This document shows, piece after piece, positions 1 to 13,138 of a DNA stretch of 13,138 nucleotides (position 1 is its first letter; each line of letters starts with the position of its first letter). Under the pieces are notes generated by a model. The model did no database searches. It saw only the letters and a program-made list of their open reading frames with translations, and had not been told where the DNA came from. The stretch is from Candidatus Eiseniibacteriota bacterium. GTDB taxonomy: Bacteria; ARS69. Made by a program: the position numbers and the translations under genes. Location: the NCBI GenBank assembly GCA_052390515.1, contig JBQTGV010000101.1:1-13138 (forward strand), read 5' to 3'.

Positions 1-87
1 CCGATCATCCCCCTTCGCCCTCCGCCGCCGCGGGGCCGCCGCGGTCGTTCCGGAGGGCAGGCTATCGGAGCCCCTCAAGGGATCATA

Positions 88-136
88 TTTTCCGGAAAAG
101 GTGGGGTCAGAGTTTCCGGAACTCACACGTGTGAGT
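88..136. repeat. cluster of short palindromes and a direct repeat at the toxin truncation point
   Basis: TTTTCCGGAAAA (88-99) is a perfect 12-bp palindrome. TTTCCGGAA occurs at 89-97 and 113-121. ACTCACACGTGTGAGT (121-136) is a perfect 16-bp palindrome. Confidence 0.6.
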
Positions 137-304
137 CGCCGTATCAAGCGGCTGCGAGGGATGCGGCAGCCCCAGTATCGCCTTCGTGTGGGCGAGATGC
201 GAGTTTTCTATGACGTCACGGAGACCGAAGTTCAGGTCCTCGCCATCGTCTCGAAGGATGAGGTCCGGGCGTGGCTCGAGCAGGAGGGCCAGCCGGAGGC
301 GTAG
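101..304 (+). pseudogene. RelE/ParE-family type II toxin, probably 5'-truncated (C-terminal ~60 aa)
   Basis: RIKRLRGMRQPQYRLRVGEMRVFYDV...VQVLAIV is a typical RelE C-terminal motif, and the gene lies directly upstream of a Phd-type antitoxin. The frame is open to the window edge, but sequence upstream of ~119 does not resemble a RelE N-terminus. Confidence 0.7.
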
Positions 305-305
305 C

Positions 306-542
306 GTGGCGCTGGCCGAGGTGAAGGACGACCTGTCACGGTATCTGCGGATGGCCGAGCAAGAGGAGATCCTGATCACCCGCCACGGCAAGCCGGCCGG
401 CGTTCTGATCGGGTTTTCCTCGGAGGAGGACTGGCTGGAGTATCGTTTGGAGAACCATCCTGAGTTCCTGGATCGGATTGCGCGCGCGCGCGTGGATCAT
501 CGTGAAGGTCGAGGTGTGAAGCTGGAGGACCTTCCGGAGTGA
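306..542 (+). CDS. Phd/YefM-family antitoxin
   Basis: VALAEVKDDLSRYLRMAEQEEILITRHGKPAGVLI matches the Phd/YefM N-terminal DNA-binding motif. GTG at 306 has GGAGG at 295-299 and follows the toxin stop at 304. Confidence 0.85.
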   Translation: MALAEVKDDLSRYLRMAEQEEILITRHGKPAGVLIGFSSEEDWLEYRLENHPEFLDRIARARVDHREGRGVKLEDLPE

Positions 543-544
543 CG

Positions 545-603
545 GGCTAACAGCGGCATGGAGCGGACGCGCTTCGCGCCGCCGCTGATGCCGAGCGTTA
601 GGA
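545..603 (+). mobile_element. attC: integron attC site (59-base element)
   Basis: R'' GGCTAAC 545-551, 5-bp spacer, L'' CATGGAGC 557-564, central palindrome, L' GCTGATG 584-590, 6-bp spacer, R' GTTAGGA 597-603. It is 59 bp long, begins 2 bp after a stop codon and ends 5 bp before the next ATG. Confidence 0.88.
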
Positions 604-608
604 CGCAT

Positions 609-1370
609 ATGACATCTATCGCAATACTTGGTGCGACCGGCAACTTGGGGCGACACGTCGCAAAACAGGCCCTCGCTCACGGTTGGGAGCTCTCGGTCGC
701 TGTCCGCAATCGTGGACGGCTTGCCCCTGATGTCGCCTCGAGCGCGCATGTAACCGATCTAGATCTCACCATGGCGACGACCGAGCAGCTTGCCTCCTTC
801 GCTGCCGGTCACGATGTCTTCGTATCGTGCGCTGGAGTTGTGACGGAAGGCGAGGCGTTCGTTCGCCTAGTGGACGGAGTTGTCACGGCGCTGGAGTCAC
901 TCCAGCCCGACAAGCGCCCAGTGTGCTGGTTTCTCGCCGGTGCGGCGCTCTTGCCGCTGGATGCAACGGGAAGGATGGGCGTGGATCTTCCCAAAGTGAG
1001 CGACACATACTGGCCCCACCGGAAGAATTACGAGCGACTGCAGCGCTCTAGCCTCGACTGGCGTCTCCTGTGCCCTGGGCCAATGGTCGAGGAACCTGCC
1101 ATTGGCTTGCAGCGGCTTCGTGTGTCTATTGACAGCTTGCCTGCTTCGCTACCAGCAATCGCTCGATCCCTGCCTTCCCTTCTGGTGCTTCCCTTGTTCG
1201 CAATGAAGATCCCGGAAATGATCATTCCATATGCCGACGCGGCTTCAGTGATCCTCGCGAATGTGGAAGCGCATGGCTCGACTACAAGGCACAGAGTCGG
1301 CGTGGCTTTGCCTATCGGCATGAAAGGCAAGAAGCAGGTATGGTCAGCCCAGCCGCGAAGTGCGCCTTGA
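609..1370 (+). CDS. NAD(P)H-binding Rossmann-fold protein (NAD-dependent epimerase/flavin reductase-like), integron gene cassette
   Basis: N-terminal IAILGATGNLG (GxxGxxG), plus FLAGAALL and SSLDWRLLCP motifs. ATG 609 lies right after attC R', where AGGA (600-603) can act as RBS. Codon third positions are visibly more A/T-rich than in the genes beyond 2.9 kb. Confidence 0.85.
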   Translation: MTSIAILGATGNLGRHVAKQALAHGWELSVAVRNRGRLAPDVASSAHVTDLDLTMATTEQLASFAAGHDVFVSCAGVVTEGEAFVRLVDGVVTALESLQPDKRPVCWFLAGAALLPLDATGRMGVDLPKVSDTYWPHRKNYERLQRSSLDWRLLCPGPMVEEPAIGLQRLRVSIDSLPASLPAIARSLPSLLVLPLFAMKIPEMIIPYADAASVILANVEAHGSTTRHRVGVALPIGMKGKKQVWSAQPRSAP

Positions 1371-1421
1371 CAGCATACAGCTGACCGCGCTCCGCGCCGC
1401 CGCTGATGCTGGGCGTCAGGC
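1364..1421 (+). mobile_element. attC: degenerate attC site
   Basis: CAGCATACAGCTGACCGCGCTCCGCGCCGCCGCTGATGCTGGGCGTCAGGC shares CGCGCCGCCGCTGATGC with the first attC and keeps paired CAGCAT/ATGCTG arms. The R boxes are altered: GCCTTGAC and GTCAGGC instead of RYYYAAC and GTTRRRY. Confidence 0.7.
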
Positions 1422-1455
1422 AGGACGAGCACCTTACAAGCAGTAGGACAAGGGC

Positions 1456-1560
1456 ATGATCCACTGCTACCGTGAGGGTGACGAGGTGATTCGAATCATC
1501 TCCGCTCGGAAGGCGACTCGGGCGGAGCGGGAGCAGTACAGCCGTAGGTGGATGAGATGA
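1456..1560 (+). pseudogene. brnT: BrnT-family toxin, C-terminal fragment only (34 codons)
   Basis: Translates as MIHCYREGDEVIRIISARKATRAEREQYSRRWMR*, and IRIISARKAT is the BrnT signature. An in-frame TAG at 1444-1446 means the N-terminal part is missing. The stop overlaps the antitoxin start (ATGA 1557-1560). Not in the supplied ORF track. Confidence 0.8.
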
Positions 1561-1775
1561 AGAAGGAGTACGACTTCTCGAAGGCGAGACGGAATCCCTA
1601 TGCGGGCCGGCTCAAGCGGCAAGTGACCATCCGCCTGGACAACGGGACGATCGGCTATTTCAAGGAGCTGGCGGACGAGACGGGCATTCCCTATCAGACG
1701 CTGATCAACCTGTACTTGAGGGAGTGTGCGGCGAGCCGCAAGAAGCTCTCGATGAACTGGAGGCCCGTCGCTTAA
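1557..1775 (+). CDS. brnA: BrnA-family antitoxin (ribbon-helix-helix)
   Basis: MKKEYDFSKARRNPY...KRQVTIRLD...YFK...GIPYQTLINLYLR is a characteristic BrnA/CopG-like sequence. It is coupled to the BrnT remnant by an ATGA overlap. Confidence 0.88.
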   Translation: MKKEYDFSKARRNPYAGRLKRQVTIRLDNGTIGYFKELADETGIPYQTLINLYLRECAASRKKLSMNWRPVA

Positions 1776-1824
1776 CGTCGGCCGGCGGCCAAACACGTAT
1801 GAGGCCCCCGGTGGTCAATAGGTA

Positions 1825-2261
1825 GTTGTTCCCCTCCGTCCGCCTGGTCGGCGTCACCGCTGGGGATCGGCTGGTCGTCCCGACTTCGTTTCCCACGGGT
1901 GCAGACGGTCCACCCTGCACCAAACACGTATCGAGGGTCGCGGCCCGGCGTCGCCGGTCCGAGCGGAGCAGGTTCACTCCGCAGCCCTAGAACTCATGGG
2001 TGCCCTCGTTCCGGCTCACTCACGACGGACGGGCTGAGCGCGCTGCTCTCCAGTTGGTCTCGAGCTCGGCGAGGGGCAGGACATCTCGCGTCGATCCGAA
2101 TCTTTGGGGAGCGGGACGGTCGTCCGTTCAAACGGTGCAGGATCCCTGGGCTTCGCTCCGGCAATCACCGGGGTCTTCGCCCCAGACGCTTCCTCTCGGT
2201 TGCCACACGAGCTTCTCCGTCAGCGGGTCCCAGTTAGACAAAGGGCTCGACCGTCCCCTCC
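1825..2261 (-). ncRNA. putative bridge/seek RNA of the IS1111-type element (three guide loops); boundaries approximate
   Basis: Inverted-repeat pairs at 2113-2122/2248-2257 (perfect 10 bp), 2001-2008/2070-2078 and 1898-1904/1915-1921. The internal 12-mer at 1920-1931 is identical to the element end/junction at 1789-1800. The motif CGAGC-N8/9-AACTGG occurs twice. Confidence 0.65.
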
Positions 2262-2262
2262 T

Positions 2263-2337
2263 TCACGAGGCCAGGAAGGCGTTCATGTCGAAGGCCTTCC
2301 TCCGCTTCAGCATGTGGAAGACGGCCCGTCCCAGCCG
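2263..2337 (-). pseudogene. IS110-family transposase C-terminal fragment
   Basis: RLGRAVFHMLKRRKAFDMNAFLAS* resembles the (H/R)KL(G/A)RAVYxML-type C-terminal helix of IS110 transposases. The stop is TCA at 2263-2265 on the plus strand. Confidence 0.7.
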
Positions 2338-2801
2338 ACGCCGAGTTGATCGAGGAGCTGCGCCGCTTCGCGCGGGGCGAGGGGTTCGACGAGCAGCCCA
2401 TCCCGGGGCTCGACTCGGAAGGGCTCGACTTCCGAGCGGCTACCGAGTCGTTCGCGCCCGTCCGCGCGATCGCCCGCCGCGATCTGGAGACCCTGCGCCT
2501 CCTCACGGAACACCAGAGCCGCAAGGTGCCGACTGTGGGCGGGAGGATCCTCTTCGGGCGGGAGCGCGAGCGGCACTTCCCGGACGCATGGATCCAGGCG
2601 GGGCGCTTCGCGGGCGCCGACAAGAGCCACATCCTGGACCGCGCTGAGGTCCGCTCCATCCCTGCGCGCAGCGTAGAGGAAGCCGTCGCCTTCGTGCAGA
2701 AGCACGCCTGGCACGGCGCCGCGATCGGCGCGGTGCGCCGGAAGGACCGATGGAGCCTGCCCCCGGAGGCGGTGCGCGAGGCCGTCATCAACGCGGTGGC
2801 G
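2334..2801 (+). pseudogene. internal fragment of an AlbA_2 (Schlafen-like)/RecG-C-terminal (HATPase_c_4)-type putative regulator
   Basis: ADAELIEELRRFARGEGFDEQP...VPTVGGRILFG...FPDAWIQAGRFAG...LPPEAVREAVINAVA resembles this family. Similarity stops just before the His expected after REAxxNAxA, and the frame continues as antisense of the FG-GAP gene. There is no N-terminal AlbA domain. Confidence 0.72.
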
Positions 2802-2888
2802 CCGTCGCGTTCCACCACAGGTCCACCGCGCTCGCGCCGGTGCGCCGGCCGAAGACCGAAGGGGACATGCGTCGGGAAGCGGAGGTGG

Positions 2889-5800
2889 TCAGCGCAGGAG
2901 CACGAGCTTCTGCACCCGCGTCTCCCGACCCGCCTGCACCCGCAGGAAGTAGACGCCGGCCACCGGGACGCGGGACCCGCTTCGCGCGTCCCAGGTGAGG
3001 GGGTACGAACCGGGCTCGTAGACCTCGCCAGGGATCAGCTCCACCACCCGTCGCCCGGCGACGTCCACGACGTCCGCGTGGACGCGGGCGCGTTCGCCCA
3101 GGGTGAGCCGCAGCGCGAAGTTCCCCCAGGACGGGTTCGGGCCGGCGGGCACGAGCTCGATGCGTCCCGCGCCTCCGGGCGTCCCCACCACCGGCGCGGC
3201 CACGACCAGGACGCCGGCGGTGCGCAGGTGCGCCTCGTTGTGGCCGTTGATCGTCCCCTGCGTCCAGGGACCCCGGCTCTGAAATGGGGTCTTCGCCGGG
3301 TCGTACTTCGCGCGGACCCGCCAGTGGTACTGCATCCCGGAGGAGAGGCCGCTCACGAGCCGCTCCAGCTCGATCACGCCGTCCTGCCCGACGTCGAACC
3401 AGGGGCCGGTCACGGTGCCCTGCCCGTCGAAGGGAGTGCTCAACGGCTTCACCTCGTGCTCCATCTGCAGGCGGGTGCGGCCGTAGCCGGAGCTCAGGAT
3501 GGCGCGGATGCGAAACTCCGCTTCGCCGTCAGACCGGCCCAGCGGCGCGATCGGTGTCGTCCCGTCCGTTCGCAGCTGGCGCGCGTGCGTGGCGCGGCCG
3601 GCGCCGCCGTTCCCGTAGAACGCGAAGATGCGCCCCTCGTCGAGGTGTCCGTTGTCGAAGAGGCAGGCCGAGGCCACCACGTCGGAGAAGCCGTCGCCGT
3701 TCATGTCACCGGCAGCAGCCACGGAGACGCCGAAGGCCGCGCCGGCCTGCTGGCTTTCCGCGGTCCACGCCGCCGCCGGCGAGAGCCCCGTTTCCGAACC
3801 GAGGTAGACGAAGGCGCGCCCTTCGTCGGTCTCGCCGTTGTCGAAGAGGTACGCGCCGACGATGACGTCGGAGAAGCCGTCGCCGCTCACGTCTCCGGCC
3901 GTGGCCACGCAGGAGCCGAAGTAGGCGGCGTCCTGATCGCCCTCCGCGGACCACGCGGCGGTCGGCGAGAGTCCCGTGGGCGAGCCGTGGTAGACGAACG
4001 CCGCTCCCTCGCTGCCCTGTCCGTTGTCGTAGAGGTACGCGCCGGCGATGACGTCGGAGAAGCCGTCGCCGTTGACGTCGCCCGCCGTGCTCACCGAGAG
4101 GCCGAGTCGGTCGCCGATCTGCACGCCGTCCGCGGTCCATGCGGCCACCGGAGACAGCCCCGCCGGCGATCCGTGGTACACGAAGGCGCGTCCCTGGTCG
4201 GCGAGGTCGTCGTCGTACAGGAAGCTCCCGACGATGACGTCCGAGAAGCCGTCGCGGTTCACGTCCCCCGCGGTCGCGACGCAGACTCCGAACTCCGCGC
4301 CGGCCTGGTCGCTCTCCGCGGTCCATGCGGGGGCCACCGAGAGTCCCGCCGCCGAGCCGTGGTAGACCCAGGCGCGCCCTTCGCTGGTCTGTCCGTTGTC
4401 GTAGAGCCGGCTCCCGACGATGACATCGGCGAAGCCGTCGCCGTTGACGTCTCCCGCGCCCGCCACGACTCCGAACTCCGCGGCGGCTTGGTCACTCTCC
4501 GCGGTCCAGGCTGGCGTCGTCGACAGGCCGCCGGCCGATCCGAGGTACAGGAAGGCGCGCCCCTCGTCGGTCTGACCGTTGTCGTAGAGGTAGGCGCCGA
4601 CGATGACGTCGGCGAAACCGTCGCCGTTCACGTCGCCCGCACCCGCGACCGAGGAGCCGAAGCGCGCGCCGGCCTGATCGCCTTCGGCGCTCCACGCGGG
4701 TGTGGTGGACAGCCCCGTGGCCGACCCGTGGTAGATGAACGCCCGCCCCTCCAGGCTCTGCCCGTTGTCGTACTGGAAGGCGCCGACGATGACGTCGGCG
4801 AACCCGTCGCCGTTCACGTCGCCGGCGCTCGCCGCCGAGCGGCCGAGCTGCGAGGCGGGCTCGTCGCTCTCCACCGCCCAGACGGCCGCCGCCGTCGGCC
4901 CCGAGGGCGTTCCGAGGTACAGGAAGGTCCGTCCCTCGTCGGGTTGGGCGTCATCGAGCCGTGGGCTCCCGACGAGGACATCGGAGAAGCCGTCGCCGTT
5001 CACGTCTCCCGCCGGCGCGACGCAGTGGCCGAACTCGGCGTAATCCTGCGCACCGTCCACGAACCAGACCGGGCTCGGCACGAGCCCCGCAGCGGATCCG
5101 TGGTAGAGGTAGGCACGTCCTCTCGTTATCAGGCTCGAGTCATAGTAGTTGTAGGCTCCCACGAGCACGTCGGCGTAACCGTCGCCGTTCACGTCCCCCG
5201 CGGTCGCGACCGAGGCGGCAAACAGGGAGAACGCGAGGTTGGACTCGAGGGCCACGGCGGGAAGGGCGGCGAGCCCCGCCGGCGAGCCATGGTAGACGAA
5301 GGTCAATCCCTCGTTGGTCTGCCCGTTGTTGAAGGCGGGCGCGCCGACGAGGATGTCCGAGCATCCGTCACCGTTCACGTCGCCGGCAGTCGCCACCGAT
5401 TGCCCGAGGCCGGCGTAGTCCTGTCCGCCCTCCACGCTCCAGGCGGAGGAGAAGGCGAGTCCGACGGCGGAGCCGTGGTAGACGAGCGCCAGTCCCTCGT
5501 TGACGTTGCCGTTGTCGAGGCCGTGCGCGCCGACGATAACGTCGGCGTAGCCATCCCCGTTGACGTCCCCCGCGGTCGCCACCGACCAGCCGAGGTAGGC
5601 GTTCGCCTGGTTTCCCTCCGTCGTCCAGGAGTGGAACACGCTGAGCCCCGACGCCGAGCCGTGGTAGACGTACGCCAGACCCTCGTCGAGCTCGCCGTTG
5701 TCGGTGTAGGGCGCGCCGACGATCACGTCGGAGTACCCGTCACCGTTCACGTCTCCCGCCGTCGCCACCGAGGCTCCGAAGCGGCTGTCGCTCTGGTGGC

Positions 5801-6413
5801 CGTTCATCACCCACGCCGGGATGGTGGAGAGCCCGGCCGGCGAGCCGTGGTAAACGAACGCGCGCCCCTCGTCGGTCAGATCGGCGTCGTAGTACGAAGC
5901 GCCGACGATCACGTCGGAGTAGCCGTCGCCGTTCACGTCTCCGGCTGTCGCCGCGCAAGAGCCGAAGAAGGCCTGGTGCTGGTTGCCCTCCCCGGTCCAT
6001 GCGGGCGTCGTGGACAGCCCCGCGGCCGAGCCGTGGTACACGAAGGCCGCCCCTTCCTCGAAGGCGCTGTTGCTCCAAGCCGGGGCCGCCACGATGACGT
6101 CGGAGTAGCCGTCTCCGTTCACGTCACCCGCCGTCGTCACGGAGGCGCCGAACAGGGCGCCGTACAGGTCGCCGTCCGCGGTCCACGCGGGCGTCGTCCC
6201 GGCGCCCGAGACGGTGCCGCTGGCTCCGCCGCGAGCAAGCTGCTCGGCCACCACGCGCCACCAGTCCTCGTCGGCGCCGGCGGCGAGAACGGCGGGGTCC
6301 GGCTCAGGGGCCGTGGAGGCCGCGAAGGCCGGGTCGGCAGCGTTTGCCGGGCGGGCCGGCCCAGCCGGGGCGAACACGAGGAGGAGCGTGCAGAGCGATG
6401 GAGCGGCGTTCAT
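2889..6413 (-). CDS. secreted FG-GAP (integrin-alpha-like beta-propeller) repeat protein with C-terminal FlgD-Ig/T9SS-like sorting domain, ~1174 aa
   Basis: Signal-peptide-like N-terminus (MNAAPSLCTLLLVFAPAGPA) with a GGGAGG RBS upstream of ATG 6413. There are 14 AGD(V/M)(N/S)(G/R)DG-x-x-D repeats. The C-terminus reads PNP...DVAGRRV...WD...AGVYFLRV...KLVLLR. Confidence 0.9.
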   Translation of the reverse strand: MNAAPSLCTLLLVFAPAGPARPANAADPAFAASTAPEPDPAVLAAGADEDWWRVVAEQLARGGASGTVSGAGTTPAWTADGDLYGALFGASVTTAGDVNGDGYSDVIVAAPAWSNSAFEEGAAFVYHGSAAGLSTTPAWTGEGNQHQAFFGSCAATAGDVNGDGYSDVIVGASYYDADLTDEGRAFVYHGSPAGLSTIPAWVMNGHQSDSRFGASVATAGDVNGDGYSDVIVGAPYTDNGELDEGLAYVYHGSASGLSVFHSWTTEGNQANAYLGWSVATAGDVNGDGYADVIVGAHGLDNGNVNEGLALVYHGSAVGLAFSSAWSVEGGQDYAGLGQSVATAGDVNGDGCSDILVGAPAFNNGQTNEGLTFVYHGSPAGLAALPAVALESNLAFSLFAASVATAGDVNGDGYADVLVGAYNYYDSSLITRGRAYLYHGSAAGLVPSPVWFVDGAQDYAEFGHCVAPAGDVNGDGFSDVLVGSPRLDDAQPDEGRTFLYLGTPSGPTAAAVWAVESDEPASQLGRSAASAGDVNGDGFADVIVGAFQYDNGQSLEGRAFIYHGSATGLSTTPAWSAEGDQAGARFGSSVAGAGDVNGDGFADVIVGAYLYDNGQTDEGRAFLYLGSAGGLSTTPAWTAESDQAAAEFGVVAGAGDVNGDGFADVIVGSRLYDNGQTSEGRAWVYHGSAAGLSVAPAWTAESDQAGAEFGVCVATAGDVNRDGFSDVIVGSFLYDDDLADQGRAFVYHGSPAGLSPVAAWTADGVQIGDRLGLSVSTAGDVNGDGFSDVIAGAYLYDNGQGSEGAAFVYHGSPTGLSPTAAWSAEGDQDAAYFGSCVATAGDVSGDGFSDVIVGAYLFDNGETDEGRAFVYLGSETGLSPAAAWTAESQQAGAAFGVSVAAAGDMNGDGFSDVVASACLFDNGHLDEGRIFAFYGNGGAGRATHARQLRTDGTTPIAPLGRSDGEAEFRIRAILSSGYGRTRLQMEHEVKPLSTPFDGQGTVTGPWFDVGQDGVIELERLVSGLSSGMQYHWRVRAKYDPAKTPFQSRGPWTQGTINGHNEAHLRTAGVLVVAAPVVGTPGGAGRIELVPAGPNPSWGNFALRLTLGERARVHADVVDVAGRRVVELIPGEVYEPGSYPLTWDARSGSRVPVAGVYFLRVQAGRETRVQKLVLLR

Positions 6414-6525
6414 GGGCGAGCCTCCCGTCGATTGGAGTGGTCGCCCGCACATGCGACGCCCAGCGGCGAATGGTGCCACTCACCTCCGGATCACGACCCG
6501 GCTCGGTCGGGTCTCGCCTCACGCA

Positions 6526-7095
6526 TCAGCCGGCGGCGGATTCCCCCAACGCGCCGAAGAGCCAGGCCCGCGCGAAGGTCCAGTCGCGCTTCACGGTGCG
6601 CGCGGTGACGCCGAGCACGTCGGCGACCTCGTCGACGCTCAGGCCGGCGTAGAAGCGGAGGCGGACCACGGTCGCGCCGCGCTCGTCCACCGTGTGCAGC
6701 CGCTGCAGCGCGCCATCCAGCGCCAGGATCTGGTCCAGGTCGTAGTCCACGGCGAGGTCGGCGGCCGCCAGGTCCGAGAGGGACACCTTCTCCCGAGGCC
6801 GCCCCTCGATGCCGCCGCGCTTCTCCCGGCCGCGGGCTCGCGCCCGTTCGATCAGGATCCGGCGCATCGCCTCGGCGGCCGCGGCGAAGAACTGCGCGCG
6901 GCTCGCCCACAACTTGGGTCCCTCGCCGGCCAGGCGCAGGTAGGCCTCGTGCACGAGCTCGGTGGAGCGGAGGGTCCCGCCGGCGCGCTCGCTGCGGAGC
7001 CGCGCGTGGGCCAGCTCGCGGAGCTGGGCGTACAGGGCGCCGAGCATCTCGGAAGTCGGCTCGGCGGGATCGGGGGCGTCGGGCTGGTCGGTCAC
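6526..7095 (-). CDS. ECF-type RNA polymerase sigma factor, Ser/Thr-kinase-associated type (TIGR02999/ECF43-like)
   Basis: LYAQLRELA...TLRSTELVHEAYLRL...FFAAAAEAMRRILIERAR (sigma2) and VVRLRFYAGLSVDEVADVLGVTARTVKRDWTFARAWL (sigma4). The start is taken as GTG 7095 (or 7098); the longer ORF-track start overlaps the kinase. Confidence 0.9.
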   Translation of the reverse strand: MTDQPDAPDPAEPTSEMLGALYAQLRELAHARLRSERAGGTLRSTELVHEAYLRLAGEGPKLWASRAQFFAAAAEAMRRILIERARARGREKRGGIEGRPREKVSLSDLAAADLAVDYDLDQILALDGALQRLHTVDERGATVVRLRFYAGLSVDEVADVLGVTARTVKRDWTFARAWLFGALGESAAG

Positions 7096-7101
7096 CACCC
7101 G

Positions 7102-7110
7102 ATCGTAGCA
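7102..7110 (-). promoter_or_regulatory. possible extended -10 element (TGCTACGAT) for a leaderless sigma factor mRNA
   Basis: TGnTACGAT lies 6 nt upstream of GTG 7095, and no clear Shine-Dalgarno sequence is present. Confidence 0.35.
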
Positions 7111-7126
7111 CGCGGTTTCACGCGGC

Positions 7127-9946
7127 TCACTGCCGGGCGAGGCTGTCGATCTGCGCGTGGAACGCCGCGGCCTGCTCCGGCCGGCCGAGCGCCTCGAGAA
7201 CCTCGGCGGCACTACGGAGCGCCGTGCGCTTGCTTCCTTTGGCGAAGGCGGCATCGGCCATCAACGGCTCCACGCTGTCCACGAGCAGCGTTTCCGCCGC
7301 CGCCGCGTCGCCCGCTCGGAGGATGCACTGCCCGAGCAAGTTCCGGCTCCACGCCAGCAGCACGGGATTCGGGTCGGTCGCCTGGCGCTGGCCGGCCAGG
7401 CACGTCTCCATCAGCTCCCGCGCCCCCCCGGTCTCCCCGCGCGCCAGCAGCACCGTGGCGAGAAACTGGCTGAACCGCGCGACGTCCGGGTGCGACGGAC
7501 CCAGCAGCTTCCGGTTGGTCTCCAGCGCGCGTCGCTCCAGATCCGCGGCCTCCTCCAGCCGGGAGACCCGGTACATGAGCCCGGCGAGCAGGTGCTGCAC
7601 CAGGGCGACCTCGGTGTGCTCTTCGCCGTACAGCCGGACGCGGATCGCCAGCGCCTCGCGGTAGAGGCGCTCGGCGTCCTCGAACCGGTCCTGCTTGAAG
7701 TAGAGGGCGCCGAGGTTGCCGAGGGACGCGGCCACGTCGGGATGCTCGTCGCCGAGGACCTTCCGCTGGATGGCCAGGCTCTCGAGGTAGAGCGGCTCGG
7801 CCTCGTCGTATCGCCCGAGGGACTTCACCAGTACGGCGAGGTTGTTCAGTCCGGTGGCGAGCGCGGGGTGGCTGTCGCCGAGGACGCGCCTTTCCAGCGC
7901 GATCGTCGCACGGTAGAGAGACTCGGCCTCGGCGTATTTCCGCTGGTTCTTCAGCACGTGAGCGAGGTTGGACATGCCCATCAGGACCGAGGGATGATCG
8001 TCGCCCGAGGCGGCGCGATGGATGGCGAGCGCCTCGCGCTGTGCGGCCTCCGCTTCCGCCAGGCGTCCCTGGGAGCGCAGCGCCTCGAACAACGTGAACA
8101 GCGCACCGGCGTACCGCGGGTCGGCGGCGCCGACGCTGTCCCGGTAGAGCTCGACGGACTCCCGCGCCAGCCGCTCCGATTCCTCGTACTTGCCGAGCGC
8201 ATGCTGCACGTTCGAGGAGAGGCCGAGATTGTACGCTGCCTCCTCCGCGTGCGAGGCCCGCTTCGGCCGCAGGATGGCGGCGGCCTCGTCCAGCACGACC
8301 TGCGCGGTGTCGGCGCGTCCGGCATCCAGCAGCACGTCGCCGAGCGCATCGAGCGCGGCGGCCCGCTCGACGCTGCCGCGTCCATGACGAGCGGCCGCCA
8401 CTTCGGCGCGCTCCCGAGCCAACGGAAGCGCCTCCGCCGGAAGCCCGAGGCCGTCGTAGGCCTGCGCGAGCGTGCCGAGCACCGCGGCCTGCACGTCCGG
8501 CTCACCGGCGAGCTCGGTGGAAACGCGCGCCGCCGCGCGGTCCAGGATGTCGCGCGCCAGCACCTGCTCGCCGCGCGCGCTGGCCGGATCGGAAGCGGAG
8601 AGCATCTCCTGGAGGAACGTGTTGATGTGCTCGGCCTTGAGCCGCTCGACACGCTGGCGGTGGTACATCACGGTCATGCCGAAGGCGAAGACGATCAGCG
8701 CGACGACGAGAGCACCCGCGAGCGCTGCCACGCCCCGGTGTCGTGCGACGAGCTTCTGGATCTGGTACGCGGTGCTCGGAGACCGGGCGAGAATCGGCTG
8801 ACTCGCCAGGTGGCGCTCCACGTCCTCGGCGAGCGTCGCGGCGCTGGAGTACCGCCGCGCGGGGTCCTTCTCCAGCGCCTTCAGCGTGATCCACTCGAGA
8901 TCGCCGCGCAGCCGCCGCGCGAGGGACTGCGGTTCCGTCCGGCGCATCGCCGCGATGGCGGCGGCCGACGCCCCGAGGGAAGAGAGCCGGGTCGTGAGGC
9001 GGGGAGGCTCGGTGTCGCGGATGAGCTGCAGGAGCTCGAGCAGTCCGCCTCCCGGCGTCTCGCGGCGGTCGAACGGCAAGTCGCCGACCAGCAGCTCGTA
9101 CAGGATCACCCCCAGCGAGTAGACGTCGCCGCGCGTGTCCACGCCGGCCGGGGAGGCCGAGGCCTGCTCCGGGCTCATGTACTCGGGAGTGCCGACGACG
9201 ACGCCCGCCTGAGTGTGCAGCGTCTCCTGCGTGAGGCGCGCCCCGAGCGCCTTCGCCACGCCGAAGTCGATCACCTTGACGAGCGGCTTCTCGCCCGCAC
9301 GCGTCACCAGCACGTTGGACGGCTTGAGATCGCGGTGGATCACGCCCTTCTGATGTGCGTGCTGGACCGCCTCGCACAGCTGCAGGAAGAGGCGCAGGCG
9401 ATCGTCGAGCCCGAGCCGCTCCGCGTCGGCGAACTTCGTGATGGGCAGACCCGCGACGTGCTCCATGACGAAGTACGGATCGCCGCCGGGCGTGACCCCG
9501 GCATCGTGCACCACCGCGATGTTGGGGTGGTCCATGAGGGCGAGCACCTGCCGCTCCGCCTCGAAGCGGGCCAGGACCTCGCTCGAGCCCGCGCCGGCGC
9601 GGAGGAGCTTCAACGCGACGTTGCGCCGGATGGGCTGGCGCTGCTCCGCCAGCCAGACCGTGCCGAACCCGCCCTCGCCGAGCCGCTCGAGAAGCGTGTA
9701 CGGACCGATCTCGCGGCCCACCCCGCCGGGGCCGGCCGAGGGCGGCGCCGGAACGGCGGCAGCATCCGCCGAAGGGAGGAACGATCCCGCCGCGTCGTGC
9801 TGTCCGAGGAGCTGCTCGATGCGGGAACGCAGCTCGGGCTCCCCTCCGCACTCGCGGTCGAGCAGGTCCCCTCGGGCGCCGGGCGGGAGCTCCGCGGCGC
9901 GCTCCAGGATGCTCTTGAGGCGGTCGAGGGGGTTGCCTGGGCTCAT
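7127..9946 (-). CDS. Hanks-type Ser/Thr protein kinase with transmembrane helix and C-terminal TPR repeats, ~939 aa
   Basis: Kinase motifs GEGGFG, VALK, HRDLKPSN, DFG, GTPEYMSPE and DVYSLG are all present. TM segment VAALAGALVVALIVFAFGMTVMY. TPR repeats of the LGxxHPxxAxxLNNLA...YxEAExLY type. Likely start ATG 9946 (MSPGNPLDRLK). Confidence 0.93.
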   Translation of the reverse strand: MSPGNPLDRLKSILERAAELPPGARGDLLDRECGGEPELRSRIEQLLGQHDAAGSFLPSADAAAVPAPPSAGPGGVGREIGPYTLLERLGEGGFGTVWLAEQRQPIRRNVALKLLRAGAGSSEVLARFEAERQVLALMDHPNIAVVHDAGVTPGGDPYFVMEHVAGLPITKFADAERLGLDDRLRLFLQLCEAVQHAHQKGVIHRDLKPSNVLVTRAGEKPLVKVIDFGVAKALGARLTQETLHTQAGVVVGTPEYMSPEQASASPAGVDTRGDVYSLGVILYELLVGDLPFDRRETPGGGLLELLQLIRDTEPPRLTTRLSSLGASAAAIAAMRRTEPQSLARRLRGDLEWITLKALEKDPARRYSSAATLAEDVERHLASQPILARSPSTAYQIQKLVARHRGVAALAGALVVALIVFAFGMTVMYHRQRVERLKAEHINTFLQEMLSASDPASARGEQVLARDILDRAAARVSTELAGEPDVQAAVLGTLAQAYDGLGLPAEALPLARERAEVAAARHGRGSVERAAALDALGDVLLDAGRADTAQVVLDEAAAILRPKRASHAEEAAYNLGLSSNVQHALGKYEESERLARESVELYRDSVGAADPRYAGALFTLFEALRSQGRLAEAEAAQREALAIHRAASGDDHPSVLMGMSNLAHVLKNQRKYAEAESLYRATIALERRVLGDSHPALATGLNNLAVLVKSLGRYDEAEPLYLESLAIQRKVLGDEHPDVAASLGNLGALYFKQDRFEDAERLYREALAIRVRLYGEEHTEVALVQHLLAGLMYRVSRLEEAADLERRALETNRKLLGPSHPDVARFSQFLATVLLARGETGGARELMETCLAGQRQATDPNPVLLAWSRNLLGQCILRAGDAAAAETLLVDSVEPLMADAAFAKGSKRTALRSAAEVLEALGRPEQAAAFHAQIDSLARQ

Positions 9947-10152
9947 CGGGAGTTCGTCCGGCCGGGGGAGATTCGATCCTAGCTCATGGGCGAACCGGCC
10001 GGTACCGGCTGCCGCCGCCTCTCCCACCGGCGAATCCGCCTGCCGGCCGCGCCTCTCCCGCGGTGACGGTTTTCCCCCGCGGTCCACGCAATGGCAGGGG
10101 AGCGGCCACCGCCGGGGCATCGGGCCCCCGCCGGCCGCAAGGAGGCGGCATC

Positions 10153-10461
10153 ATGCAGATCGAGAGGAGCCCCATGCTCCGCTTGGACAAGGCCATGGTC
10201 CTCGGCTACCTCAAGTCCGCGGGATCGAGCGATCCGGACGTCCTTCACACGCAGAAGAAGAACCTGCTCTCGCTCGCCCAGTTCCCGAAGTTCGTCGGCA
10301 CCTACCTGATGGTGATGGGCGGGCTGTGCACGGTCATGATCCTCACCGCGGTGATCGGGATCCCGCTCCTCTTCTTCGGTTGGTGGATGCGCAAGCGCGG
10401 CGTGGCCAACATCAAGGTGGTGGAGGCCGGCTGGAAGGAGTTCTCCGGCGCGACCGCCTGA
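10153..10461 (+). CDS. small hypothetical membrane protein (102 aa, hydrophobic hairpin)
   Basis: GGAGG at 10141-10145 precedes ATG 10153, and codon usage is host-like. It has the hydrophobic stretch FVGTYLMVMGGLCTVMILTAVIGIPLLFFGWW. Confidence 0.75.
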   Translation: MQIERSPMLRLDKAMVLGYLKSAGSSDPDVLHTQKKNLLSLAQFPKFVGTYLMVMGGLCTVMILTAVIGIPLLFFGWWMRKRGVANIKVVEAGWKEFSGATA

Positions 10462-10549
10462 GCGGCGGACGAAGCACCGATACGTCCTGGCTCGGGGACG
10501 GTCCGGCCGGTACCATGCCGGCGGCGGTGGATCCCGAACAGGAGCGGAC

Positions 10550-11251
10550 ATGAAGCTGAACGACTGCATCGCCCTCGTCACCGGGGGCAGCGCCGGCATC
10601 GGGCTGGAGACGGCGCGGCTGCTGAAGGCGAACGGCGCGAAGGTGGCCATCTGCGGCCGCACGCAGGACCGCGTAGAGAGCGCTGCGAAGGAGATCGCCG
10701 CGCTGCCGCTCGTCGGAGACGTGGGCCGCGAGGCGGACGCGGTCCGGATGGTGGAAGCCGTCGTCGGCGAGTTCGGCGACTACAACACGCTCATCAACAA
10801 CGCCGGCTGGGGGCGCTTCGCCCCGCTGCTCGACCTCGAGCTCGACGAGTTCAAGGCGGTGATGGACACGAACGTCTTCGGCGCGATGCTCATGGCGCGC
10901 GAGTCGGCACGCCACTTCGTGGCGAAGAAGCGCGGCAACATCGTCAACGTCTCGTCGACGGCCGGCGGGCGCGGCTTCGCTGGCGGCACGGCCTACGTCG
11001 CGACGAAGTTCGCGCTCGGCGGCATGACCGAGTGCTGGCGCGCGGAGCTGCGCAAGCACGAGATCCGCGTCATGCAGATCAACCCCAGCGAGGTGCAGAC
11101 CGAGTTCGGGTCCTCGCAGGGGCGGGTCCGCAAGCTCAGCGAGAAGAAGCTGCGAAGCGAGGAGATCGCCCACGCGATCCTGGCCATGCTGACCATGGAC
11201 GACCGCGGCTTCACCACCGAGCTGACCGTCTTCGCCACGAATCCGGACTAG
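10550..11251 (+). CDS. short-chain dehydrogenase/reductase (SDR) family oxidoreductase
   Basis: TGGSAGIG, NNAG, NVSS and catalytic YVATK motifs. AGGAG RBS upstream. Confidence 0.93.
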   Translation: MKLNDCIALVTGGSAGIGLETARLLKANGAKVAICGRTQDRVESAAKEIAALPLVGDVGREADAVRMVEAVVGEFGDYNTLINNAGWGRFAPLLDLELDEFKAVMDTNVFGAMLMARESARHFVAKKRGNIVNVSSTAGGRGFAGGTAYVATKFALGGMTECWRAELRKHEIRVMQINPSEVQTEFGSSQGRVRKLSEKKLRSEEIAHAILAMLTMDDRGFTTELTVFATNPD

Positions 11252-11423
11252 CGCCCGGTCACGGTAACTTCGCCCGACCCCGGAGAAACGACCGGCCCGG
11301 GCGGTGGACGGCGTCGTCCCCGGCGCGCCGGCCGGACTCTTCAAGCCCCGGCCCCACCGTCGATTCCGCGGCCTCGAGCGCCGCCCGGGGCGCGTGGCAT
11401 GCTCCGTGCAGACTCCGCCGGGC

Positions 11424-12701
11424 ATGACACGCTTCCTACCCTGGCTCGCCTTGCCGCTCGCGCTCATCGCCCCCCTGCCGGGATCGGCCGGCGGGAACTG
11501 CTCGGGCACTTCCGTCGGCCTTGCCCCGATCGACGAGCTGGCCGCGCCGTACCTCCTGACCGCCGCCGGCGGGCTGTATCCCGGCGGCGCGAACACGAAG
11601 CCGCCGGCGCACGAGGCAGACGGCCTCGCCGAAGCGGCGCACGTCGTTCCGCTCGATCAGGCCGGGAATCCGGATCCCGTGTCCGGGAAGATCGTGATCC
11701 TCACCGTCGGGTTCTCCAACACCTCGCACGAGTCCGCCGTGCTCGTGTCGCTGAGCAACGCCGACCCGCTGCGCCACCCTGCCGTGCGCGTGGTGAACGG
11801 AGCCCACGGCTCCGCGTCGGCCGAGGTCGTCCAGGATCCGGCGAACAAGTACTGGCCGTGGCTGCTCGCGACGCTCTCGCAACACGGGTACTCGCCGCTC
11901 CAGGTGCAGGCAATCTGGTACAAGCAAGCGACCGCTTCGCCGACCGCGCCCTTCCCGCTCCATGCTCTCGCGCTGCGCCAATACAACGTGAAGATCATGG
12001 GGATCCTGCGATCGCACTTCCCCAACGCGCGGCTGTGCTACGTGTCCAGCCGCATCTACGCAGGCTACTCGGTGACCACGGTGAACCCGGAGCCGTTCGC
12101 GTACGAGTCGGCGTTCGCGTACAAGTGGATGATCGGCGACCAGATCCGCGGCGTGCCGGAGCTCAACTTCGATCCGCAGCGGGGTGCTGTGACGTCGCCG
12201 TGGATCGCGTGGGGACCGTACCTCTGGGCGGACGGCACGCGGCCCCGCTCCGACGGCCTGGTCTGGCGCTGTCAGGACTTCGTCACCGACGGCACGCATC
12301 CTTCCCCGTCGGGAACGGCGAAGGTCGCCGCGCTGCTCCTGTCCTTCTTCCAGACGGACGCGACCACGCGCGGCTGGTACCTCGCCAACCCGACCACGGG
12401 AGTCAGCGTGCTCCCACCCGAATCCGACTGGGTCGTGCTCTCGCCGCGGCCCAATCCGTTCCGTACCCAGCTCGTGATCCCCGTGCAGTTGGACCGGGCC
12501 GGCACCGTGGCCGCGTCGGTTTACTCCATCGCCGGCCGGCGCGTGCGCACTCTTCCGCCCGCGGTGCTCGGTCCGGGCCTGCACGAGCTGACCTGGGACG
12601 GACGCGATGAGCTCGGGCGCGGAGTCGCCGCAGGCATCTACTGGATCCGCATCGAGGACGGCGGCTCCGCGCATACCCTCCAGGCGACCCTGATTCGCTG
12701 A
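11424..12701 (+). CDS. secreted protein with putative SGNH/GDSL-like hydrolase domain and C-terminal FlgD-Ig/T9SS-like sorting domain
   Basis: Signal peptide MTRFLPWLALPLALIAPLPGSAG. TVGFSNT, NGAHG and DGTHP resemble SGNH blocks I, II and V. The tail reads PRPNPF...YSIAGRRVRTL...TWDGRDELGRGVAAGIYWIRI. Confidence 0.75.
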   Translation: MTRFLPWLALPLALIAPLPGSAGGNCSGTSVGLAPIDELAAPYLLTAAGGLYPGGANTKPPAHEADGLAEAAHVVPLDQAGNPDPVSGKIVILTVGFSNTSHESAVLVSLSNADPLRHPAVRVVNGAHGSASAEVVQDPANKYWPWLLATLSQHGYSPLQVQAIWYKQATASPTAPFPLHALALRQYNVKIMGILRSHFPNARLCYVSSRIYAGYSVTTVNPEPFAYESAFAYKWMIGDQIRGVPELNFDPQRGAVTSPWIAWGPYLWADGTRPRSDGLVWRCQDFVTDGTHPSPSGTAKVAALLLSFFQTDATTRGWYLANPTTGVSVLPPESDWVVLSPRPNPFRTQLVIPVQLDRAGTVAASVYSIAGRRVRTLPPAVLGPGLHELTWDGRDELGRGVAAGIYWIRIEDGGSAHTLQATLIR

Positions 12702-12717
12702 CAAAGGAGAAAGTCCG

Positions 12718-13138
12718 ATGACTCCATCGAAAGCATGGTGGGCAGTTCTGGCAGTCGTTCCCGTCGGCCTCGTTTCGGCCCTCGTCATCGACGGGGGAGA
12801 AGGGCGGCGGGAAGTGATCCTGCCCGCGGGCACCTCGATCGTCGCGGCGCTCCAGGGCGAAGTGTCCACGGCGCGGAGCCGGCCGGGAGAGGGCGTCGAG
12901 CTCCGCAGCGTGCGGCCGCTGCCCGTGGAGGGCGAAGCTCCTATTCCCGCGGGCGCCATCATCCGCGGCCAGGTCACCGAGGCGGAGGGCGGCGGACGCA
13001 TGGGCGGTGCGCCGGAGCTCGGTCTGTCGTTCCGGGAGCTCGAGATCGACGGCGAGCGCTATCCCATCCAGGCGAACATCTATTACCTGAAGGGCAAGGG
13101 CGACACCATGGAGACGGTCGCGGAGATCGGCGGCGGAG
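12718..13138 (+). CDS. membrane-anchored TrbI/VirB10-like domain protein, partial (runs off window end)
   Basis: AAAGGAGA RBS, then ATG 12718. Translates as MTPSKAWWAVLAVVPVGLVSALVI...ILPAGTSIVAALQGEVST...IPAGAIIRGQVTEAEGGGRMGGAPELGLSF..., open to the window end. Absent from the ORF track because it has no stop. Confidence 0.7.
   Translation, partial: MTPSKAWWAVLAVVPVGLVSALVIDGGEGRREVILPAGTSIVAALQGEVSTARSRPGEGVELRSVRPLPVEGEAPIPAGAIIRGQVTEAEGGGRMGGAPELGLSFRELEIDGERYPIQANIYYLKGKGDTMETVAEIGGG

Follow-up and report, generated by a model that had tools for sequence, protein, structure and literature searches.

The question raised by this locus is why a sequence found at the apparent end of a mobile element recurs inside it. 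The locus lies in a 13,138-nucleotide (nt) stretch of DNA from a Candidatus Eiseniibacteriota bacterium (GenBank assembly GCA_052390515.1, contig JBQTGV010000101.1, positions 1 to 13,138 of the forward strand), referred to here as the window. Positions 1792-2340, read on the minus strand, are likely the 3' part of a dead, 5'-truncated insertion sequence (IS) of the IS110 family, which has the IS1111-type layout and carries a guide RNA region. The non-coding region of this element would encode its guide RNA (a bridge RNA or seekRNA), and the stretch around the internal copy (1881-1940) would be the donor-binding part of that RNA, folded as a three-way junction.

The 12-mer CCAAACACGTAT has exactly two matches on the plus strand of the window, at 1789-1800 and at 1920-1931, as a sequence-only reading of this DNA had reported. 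The chance expectation of the 12-mer is 0.00, and it was absent from 200 of 200 dinucleotide-preserving shuffles of the window. The loop layout proposed around the internal copy (left arm, 7-bp hairpin, right arm) was recovered part by part at the coordinates claimed. In the RNA sense, which is the minus strand, TACGTGTTT runs from 1930 to 1922 and is preceded by ...CGACCCTCG (1931 to 1922 reads ATACGTGTTT). It is followed by a hairpin of 7 bp with a 10-nt loop (GGTGCAG, 1921 to 1915, with CTGCACC, 1904 to 1898), by the right arm CGTGGGAAAC (CGTGG-GAAAC, 1897 to 1888; reverse complement GTTTCCCACG at 1888-1897), and then by GAAGTCGGGACG. The left arm had been equated with the terminal sequence of the element. 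This is correct for the nine bases ATACGTGTT (1800 to 1792), while the last three letters of the 12-mer (T1791, G1790 and G1789) are flanking DNA. The flanks of other copies in the genome begin A/G-G-G/A/C, so the 12-base identity in the window's copy is partly luck. The repeat itself is more than chance because the relation between internal copy and element end recurs across related elements.

The proposed IS110-family remnant on the minus strand is borne out by similarity of the transposase C-terminus. Positions 2340 to 2266 (minus) encode RRLGRAVFHMLKRRKAFDMNAFLAS, followed by a stop codon, and this peptide is identical in 18 of 24 positions to the C-terminus of P0038, a protein of 347 amino acids (BLASTP, E 4e-11). 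P0038 carries PF01548 and PF02371 and matches the NCBIfam model NF033542 ('IS110 family RNA-guided transposase') with 202.6 bits against a cut-off of 140; the window's 25 C-terminal residues fall beyond both Pfam domains. The 5' side of the transposase gene has been lost at about 2337-2345. Downstream of the stop lies a long non-coding stretch (471 nt), and the same layout is found in 43 full-length relatives. This non-coding region is kept in five other places of the same genome, and its blocks are kept in relatives from many phyla. The IS1111 type was assigned by layout, in which the transposase is followed by a long non-coding region and then by a subterminal inverted repeat. The right half of the inverted repeat, GGGGGCCTCAT, is present in the window, from which the left end is missing. 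Among relatives, GGAGGCCTCAT pairs with AT-n-GAGGCCTCC between the ends, and 84% of the 43 have a left-end base +11 that complements right-end base -8 (z 7.9).

Five further pieces of the element, with 87-96% identity, are present in the same genome, an assembly of 223 contigs that is 95% complete. All are 3' pieces that end ...GGGGGCCTCATACGTGTT with few substitutions and share the terminus ...CATACGTGTT. The right end of the element, claimed earlier to lie at about 1791-1793, is placed at base 1792 because the same-genome copies all end alike and then diverge; homology of the six copies stops after GTGTT, and it does so likewise in the 43 relatives. The TT core that had been proposed fits both ends of the relatives, with T as the first base of the left end in 33 of 43 and as the second in 38 of 43. 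Beyond the right end the six copies continue with AGGCCAC, AGGCCGC, GGGCCAC, TGGCCGC, AGACAC and AGCTGG, four of which read A/G/T-GGCC. Such resemblance among flanks would be expected of an element with site-specific insertion. Four of the copies are internal to their contigs and form a nested series of 5' truncations in which the right end is always kept (about 550, 440, 112 and 28 nt remain). This one-sided loss suggests deletions starting at the left end, or the use of internal pseudo-sites.

Relatives were gathered by a tblastn search against plasmids, which gave an unannotated IS110-type frame on a Manganitrophus plasmid (L009), and by a protein search with the C-terminal region of that frame, which returned 6623 proteins. 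The best 120 of the 6623 were examined, and among these the C-termini closest to the window's peptide have the ending ...LAHKLGRAVYYMLKRQKAFDMNKFLSS. An alignment of 22 of these proteins (A1) was scanned over one genome per species and yielded 79 loci, mostly metagenome-assembled, from Desulfobacterota, Nitrospirota, Planctomycetota, Acidobacteriota, Gemmatimonadota, two Eisenbacteria, and others. The transposases of the related elements are 58-72% identical to the query. When the window's non-coding region was compared with the 79 loci by BLASTN, two blocks stood out as far better kept than the remainder, one centred on the left arm and one made up of the last 35 nt, and the left-arm block occurred with at most four substitutions in 63 of the 79. 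A strict left-end pattern was present in 54 loci; ten of the 79 have less than 130 nt upstream, and most of the remaining misses show a visible variant. The left end, the loop and the right end were all matched by patterns in 43 loci, with spans of 1.55-2.8 kb. A second right end or loop copy lies within a few kb in L020 (75, 2837), L066 (1942, 4062), L034 (1275, 4161) and L076 (second loop copy 6007), suggesting clustered or tandem insertions. A nucleotide alignment (A2) holds 50 sequences, made up of 47 relatives, the window's copy and two further copies from its genome. Of the loci in A2, the 33 with both ends present formed the test set.

Within this test set the left arm copies the right end of its own element. 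The right end of relatives reads GG(A/G)GGCCT(C/T)ATAnGTGTT and the internal copy (C/T)(G/A/T)ATAnGTGTTTGG. The arm, AUAnGUGUU, matches its own element's last nine bases in a mean of 8.52 positions, perfectly in 24 loci, against a mean of 7.89 for shuffled pairings of arm and end (0 of 2000 as high as 8.52). The variable fourth base is concordant in 28 of the 33 (A/A 17, G/G 9, C/C 2), and variants travel together in arm and end: AAG/AAG, AGG/AGG, ACG/ACG, GGCG/GGCG (L032), TGTA/TGTA (L035, L053) and ATGAG/ATGAG (L069). A column scan gave 88% identity between column 327 and right-end base -4 (z 7.3). This covariation in the 33 full-length relatives upholds the earlier claim that the left arm copies the right end, and marks the arm as a genuine donor guide. 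The published bridge RNA model (Durrant et al. 2024, PMC11208160) expects such a guide for the left half of the donor, a half that the element's right end supplies in the circle.

The structure was counted on the 50 sequences of A2, where it comprises three helices, termed H2, H1 and the hairpin. H2 pairs GUUUC (columns 104-108) with GAAAC (276-280), and H1 pairs AGGn (110-113) with n'CCU (202-205). Standard pairs occupy 88.2% of cells, a share that falls to 34-50% once the 3' partners are shifted by 1-3 columns. Two-sided changes were seen in 35 cells against 11.8 after shuffling, in 8 of 16 pairs, and 0 of 500 shuffles reached the covariation score. Pair 113/202 of H1, for example, is UA in 13 sequences, GC in 10, CG in 9, UG in 5 and AU in 1, and pair 104/280 of H2 is GC in 22, GU in 8, AU in 6 and UA in 1. 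Because these pairing counts support all three helices, the loop is a three-way junction and not a simple internal loop; and because GAAAC pairs with GUUUC in cis, the right arm would consist of a variable 5-nt linker followed by the 3' strand of H2. At position 1990, in the 5' strand of H2, other contigs carry an extra base. Between H1 and the hairpin runs (CG)AUACGUGUU(U), identical in sequence to the element's last nine bases plus the TT core; in the excised circle this strand would base-pair with the right end's bottom strand. In many IS1111 orthologues the donor-binding bases lie in a multi-loop rather than in a simple internal loop (PMC11208160). Six short motifs had no occurrence in six supplementary files of that paper; its IS1111 guide assignments in Extended Data Fig. 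10c, outside that scope, may bear on the junction model.

The other end of the element is not predicted by the right arm. In the clade the left end is nearly invariant, reading (T)T-GATACT-C-AT, one or two bases, and (G/A)AGGCC(T/C)CC, which may be summarised as (T)T-GATACTCAT-n-GAGGCC; G +1, A +2 and T +6 are present in 43 of 43 relatives and T +3 in 42 of 43. From the reverse complement of the right arm, the sequence-only reading had derived a left end beginning (TT)CCCACG. Across the test set, the reverse complement of the six bases before AAAC matched the left end in 1.48 of 6 positions against 1.45 in shuffles (692 of 2000 as high); 0 of 33 loci were perfect, and the best of three registers reached a mean of 2.2 of 6 and a maximum of 4. 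Elsewhere in the bacterium's own genome, no TTTCCCA(C/G)G site leads into sequence resembling the element. CACG had been taken to start the inverted partner; its C at 1896 is a private substitution of the window's copy. The right arm is CCCTGGGAAAC in four other genome copies and CCGTGGGAAAC in the window. All six contigs of run X1 that cover base 1896 have G there on the plus strand; 73% of the stretch's words occur in this run. The inverted partner of CCTCAT that had been predicted does exist at the left end of relatives (CAT-n-GAGGCC); its placement after CCCACG was wrong, and it starts about 7 bases inside the end, after GATACT.

A better candidate is suggested on the other side of H2, where (G)AUGAGU adjoins the helix on its 5' side in the RNA. 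AUGAGU matches the complement of left-end bases +4 to +9 in 4.06 of 6 positions against 3.54 in shuffles (0 of 2000 as high; 33 loci), and in 69% of loci column 205 complements base +7, the one freely variable position of the left end (z 5.9). Matched variants include AUCAGU/ACTGAT in L069 and AUUAAU/ACTAAT in L021 and L034. The left end would then be read by AUGAGU through ACTCAT and not by the right arm. The closest relatives (L048, L027 and L022) have the left end TTGATACTCATTGAGGCC. Homology with these, taken together with the right repeat of the window's copy, predicts TT-GATACTCAT-n-GAGGCCCCC for the lost left end. We infer a left-end start of TTGATACT, not TTCCCA(C/G)G, and the expected circle junction would be ...GGGGGCCTCATACGTG-TT-GATACTCAT....

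The junction admits other interpretations of its parts. H2 could be a built-in decoy that holds the left-end guide shut with a mimic of the left end. The 5' strand of H2 and the bases that precede it, AUGAGUUUC, are complementary to left-end GATACTCAT in eight of nine positions, and GAAAC resembles the left end's own GATAC in four of five. Under such a mechanism, donor DNA would open the junction by displacing GAAAC, coupling donor recognition to RNA refolding. Five of the six genome copies are without a transposase and keep only the right end and the guide region. Rather than simple debris, these might be non-autonomous modules whose guides are used in trans. Taken together, with the decoy helix first and the trans modules second, these proposals are unlikely to be right.

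The linker offers a further alternative. Its 5-9 bases, which differ in almost every element, are the sole freely variable single strand in the junction and face the donor guide, so they might be another kind of guide, for example a 'handshake' guide that reads the target after strand exchange. This is doubtful, as no register gave the linker an excess of matches to either target strand up to 24 bases from the core (|z| at most 2.4 over 25 loci; ungapped pairing), and its matches to the left end did not go beyond shuffles in the 33 loci. The internal copy could also act as DNA, being a second transposase binding site or a relic of end duplication; the terminal 9-10 bases are directly repeated only about 130 bp in from the end, and it is the RNA reading that assumes a transcript of the region. 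Against it, the internal copy sits between helices with compensatory changes, pointing to selection on an RNA fold, and keeps step with the end across elements whose transposases share only the identity given above with the query; moreover, the family transposase is annotated as RNA-guided, and guide RNAs have been published for this region (PMC11208160, PMC11187229). We therefore hold a DNA-level role to be very improbable. Least credible is a two-armed donor loop like that of IS621, in which the right arm CGUGGGAAAC pairs with the top strand of a left end reading (TT)CCCACG and then TATGAGG: the loop shape resembles the IS621 donor loop, the right arm's reverse complement overlaps the left arm at GTTT, and the AA of GAAAC could face the TT core, but the match counts above do not exceed shuffles, free variation of the linker is at odds with a nearly invariant left end, GAAAC is engaged in cis, and the C of CACG is private.

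Several observations weigh against interpreting 1792-2340 as an IS1111-type remnant with a guide RNA folded as a three-way junction. An Rfam scan of window positions 1400-2800 on both strands, with E up to 1, matched no family, the sole match being a chance one to CRISPR-DR20 (E 0.5, 19.7 bits against a gathering score of 42). PF02371 and PF01548 had 0 matches in the window's genome, in which no transposase domain is present. A DNA search of that genome found 3'-end fragments only and no full-length copy, so the left end of the window's own element is unseen. The closest outside copy, from a metagenome (L091), has 85% DNA identity over 556 nt and adds just 58 nt upstream, lengthening the transposase frame to 43 amino acids. 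The window's copy is probably non-functional, with a 1-nt deletion in H2 and a hairpin of 7 bp rather than 8 bp, and expression of the guide RNA is assumed; the stretch is present in seven sequencing runs, 0 of which are recorded as RNA. Alignment A2 left out 6 of 53 candidate relatives for unusual length (L029, L036, L040, L063, L083 and L088), and near-duplicates among the loci (L076/L082, L011/L012, L034/L040/L041 and L035/L053) mean that the shuffle tests overstate significance. The excess for AUGAGU is modest and perfect in just 4 of 33 loci, and covariation at the left end has little to work with because that end is so conserved.

The search for an intact copy extended well beyond this genome. 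In the genome itself, the predicted left-end motifs occurred only in the loop copies and at unrelated coding sites, the clade-type left-end motif gave chance matches in coding DNA only, and neither an all-against-all comparison of contig ends nor a scan of contig ends for N-terminal transposase motifs found anything. None of 11 other genomes of the phylum has the element, and a 39-nt match in one of them (G005) sits in no insertion sequence. An exact 20-mer had 0 matches in genome contigs and metagenome contigs, and blastn against plasmids gave no match to the element. A 19-mer from the right arm was found at five loci in metagenome contigs, all partial, of which L091 is the best. Contigs of four runs, searched over 1650-2450, held no circle junction or left end, and no listed piece spans the whole stretch; their loose contig ends at the right end are other flanks, and other contigs of the four runs cover the transposase C-terminus. 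Over the element's last ~80 nt the summed depth is 78-182, compared with 5-15 in bins just outside the right end (1650-1784), and therefore the sample holds many copies.

The target side shows a conserved sequence, with similar flanks at the six genome copies and similar sites in relatives. The insertion sites of relatives read ...cgtcNgctgcaNNgNN-TT-AGGC and resemble the 3' foot of a palindromic repeat. A candidate target guide, GUCUAAC, lies soon after the transposase stop, and support for it is modest. The corresponding motif in relatives, G(U/C)(C/A)U-AA-CUGG, is complementary to G-TT-A(G/T)(G/A)C. Positions 2 and 3 before AA match the complement of right-flank +2 and +3 in 62% and 59% of cases, compared with 42% and 34% after shuffling (z 3.1 and 3.4; 32 relatives), and in a windowed scan complementarity scored z 4.3-5.2 at the same place, some 270-280 nt on the upstream side of the donor loop; differences in host base composition inflate such scores somewhat. 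For the left flank, no guide was found by eye before TTGAC or before H1 (no consistent register). A k-mer scan of the non-coding region against targets reached at most 4 of 34 loci in any bin. The motif (C)UAACUGG occurs twice in the non-coding region, about 180 nt apart (2231-2240 and 2051-2058), and also twice in relatives; of the two copies, only the first shows any relation to the target.

Table 1. Features of the IS110-family remnant and its copies (window coordinates unless a contig is named).
Feature	Position	Strand	Basis or remark
Transposase, last 25 codons and stop (TGA 2265-2263)	2263..2340	-	Reading frame, BLASTP
3' non-coding region, 471 nt, presumed to hold the bridge/seek RNA	1792..2262	-	Conservation
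GUCUAAC, candidate target guide soon after the transposase stop	2233..2239	-	Complementary to G-TT-AGAC/AGGC of the target top strand
Conserved block CCUGCCCCUCGCCGAGCUCGAGACCAACUGG with a second CUAACUGG-like motif	2050..2080	-	Alignment
AUGAGU, candidate left-end guide	1992..1997 (1997->1992)	-	Reverse complement of ACTCAT, left end +4 to +9
H2, 5' strand	1990..1993	-	GUUUC in relatives, C120 and C66; the window lost one U and reads GUUC
H1, 5' strand AGGG	1985..1988	-	Alignment helix count
H1, 3' strand CCCU	1934..1937	-	Alignment helix count
Left arm, single-stranded junction CGAUACGUGUUU, donor guide in the same sense as the right end	1922..1933	-	Covariation
Hairpin GGUGCAG-(10 nt)-CUGCACC	1898..1921	-	Kept with G-U and compensatory changes in relatives
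Variable linker CGUGG (CCUGG in other copies)	1893..1897	-	Copies, alignment
H2, 3' strand GAAAC	1888..1892	-	Pairs with GUUUC within the RNA
AAGUCGGGACG, probably paired with CCGUCCG (about 2030-2024) as the 3' strand of an outer helix	1876..1886	-	By eye
Conserved TTGAC(A) box, 21 nt before the element end	1814..1818	-	Alignment of relatives
Subterminal inverted repeat, right half GGGGGCCUCAT	1799..1809	-	Copies, relatives
Right end, terminal 9 bases ATACGTGTT; core TT 1793-1792	1792..1800	-	Homology stop in copies and relatives
Target-side flank TGGCCGCCGGCCGAC, 16 nt after the stop of a brnA-like gene	1777..1791	-	Sequence, copies, Pfam
Same-genome copies	C120:3569-4010; C66:13-267 (contig start); C221:3974-4157 (contig end); C188:6756-6867; C120:5065-5092		DNA search

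The TTGAC(A) box of the right end and GATACT at the left end could form a junction promoter in the circle. Such a promoter is not claimed, as the 21-nt spacing between TTGACA and GATACT is unusual for sigma-70.

The remnant adjoins two toxin-antitoxin pairs, at 2-542 and 1456-1772. The first comprises a weak ParE-like frame and a Phd/YefM antitoxin. In the second, a BrnT toxin has been cut to its last ~23 residues (profile positions 57-77 of 77) and stands beside an intact BrnA antitoxin, and the right end of the IS lies 16 nt past the brnA stop. On the other side, an open frame at 2346-2815 (plus strand) abuts the point of transposase truncation. This unrelated frame has no Pfam match at E up to 0.01, a tentative reading of it as a fragment of an AlbA_2-like gene found no backing in Pfam, and nothing transposase-like was found beyond 2345. 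Palindromic repeat units, judged by eye, occur at 545-606 (GGCTAAC...CGCCGCTGATGCCGAGCG-TT-AGGAC) and, in similar form, at 1381-1425. Both resemble the insertion sites of relatives, ...gctgcaNNgNN-TT-AGGC, and the first may hold an unoccupied target-like site near 596-603 (by eye). A different, abundant palindromic repeat of roughly 190 nt is found at contig ends of this genome, G000 (e.g. C3, C9, C35, C61, C63, C99, C159, C173 and C191). At least 18 contig ends (9 right and 9 left) are broken at this repeat, whose inverted ends are TAGTGTTCCGTCTCGAAAGAAATGATCAGATGGCC. It looks like a miniature inverted-repeat transposable element inserting at (C)TAG that is unrelated to the IS remnant. In its middle, GGCCGGCGGCCACGAAG is similar to the DNA flanking two of the remnant's copies.

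Among known systems, IS621 has a bridge RNA that is reportedly the subject of a paper by Hiraizumi and coworkers from 2024. The region described here differs from IS621 in that the RNA lies downstream of the transposase, the donor guide is set in a three-way junction instead of a two-armed internal loop, and the candidate guide for the other end lies 5' of the donor guide, outside H2. The core here appears to be TT, that of IS621 being presumably CT. In common with IS621, a member of the IS110 group (Durrant et al. 2024, PMC11208160), the guide RNA is encoded in a non-coding end of the element, and one guide has the same sense as the left half of the donor, where the circle has the right end of the element. 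Donor and target also share a core dinucleotide, and a short inverted repeat would lie on either side of the donor site. The same paper places the bridge RNAs of IS1111-group elements in the right end. In IS1111 seekRNAs, Siddiquee et al. (2024, PMC11187229) found the order of top- and bottom-strand matches to be reversed relative to IS110. The seekRNA elements ISEc11, ISPa11 and ISKpn4 from that work share with the present element and its relatives a non-coding region downstream of the transposase, subterminal inverted repeats (of which the right half survives here), a transposase of about 330-350 amino acids, short RNA segments that match the target (a candidate segment in the present case), and a strand order reversed with respect to the IS110 type. 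The clade found here has proteins of 347 amino acids in Desulfobacterota, Nitrospirota, Eisenbacteria and others. Siddiquee et al. describe target-matching segments, whereas the segment recognized here matches the donor. ISPpu9/Ssr9 of Pseudomonas putida, compared by description, is also an IS110-family element; it inserts into repetitive extragenic palindromes, has a small-RNA gene downstream of the transposase, and is accompanied by extra copies of the RNA gene without transposase (PMC12288879). Unlike those, the transposase-less copies here look like nested 5' truncations and not like defined modules.

The guide RNA of an IS110-family element is an already known kind of RNA, of which this is a new example in a dead copy. 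The sole points of wider interest are the junction architecture and the possible decoy helix, and for this genome the feature is an ordinary dead IS remnant beside toxin-antitoxin genes. Guide RNAs of the IS110 and IS1111 groups are under development as programmable recombinases, and donor recognition of the IS1111 type is the less described half. The present clade is widespread in many phyla and has a right-end donor guide that is plainly readable and set in a three-way junction. It also carries a caution, in that reading both arms of the loop by analogy with IS621 yields the wrong left end.

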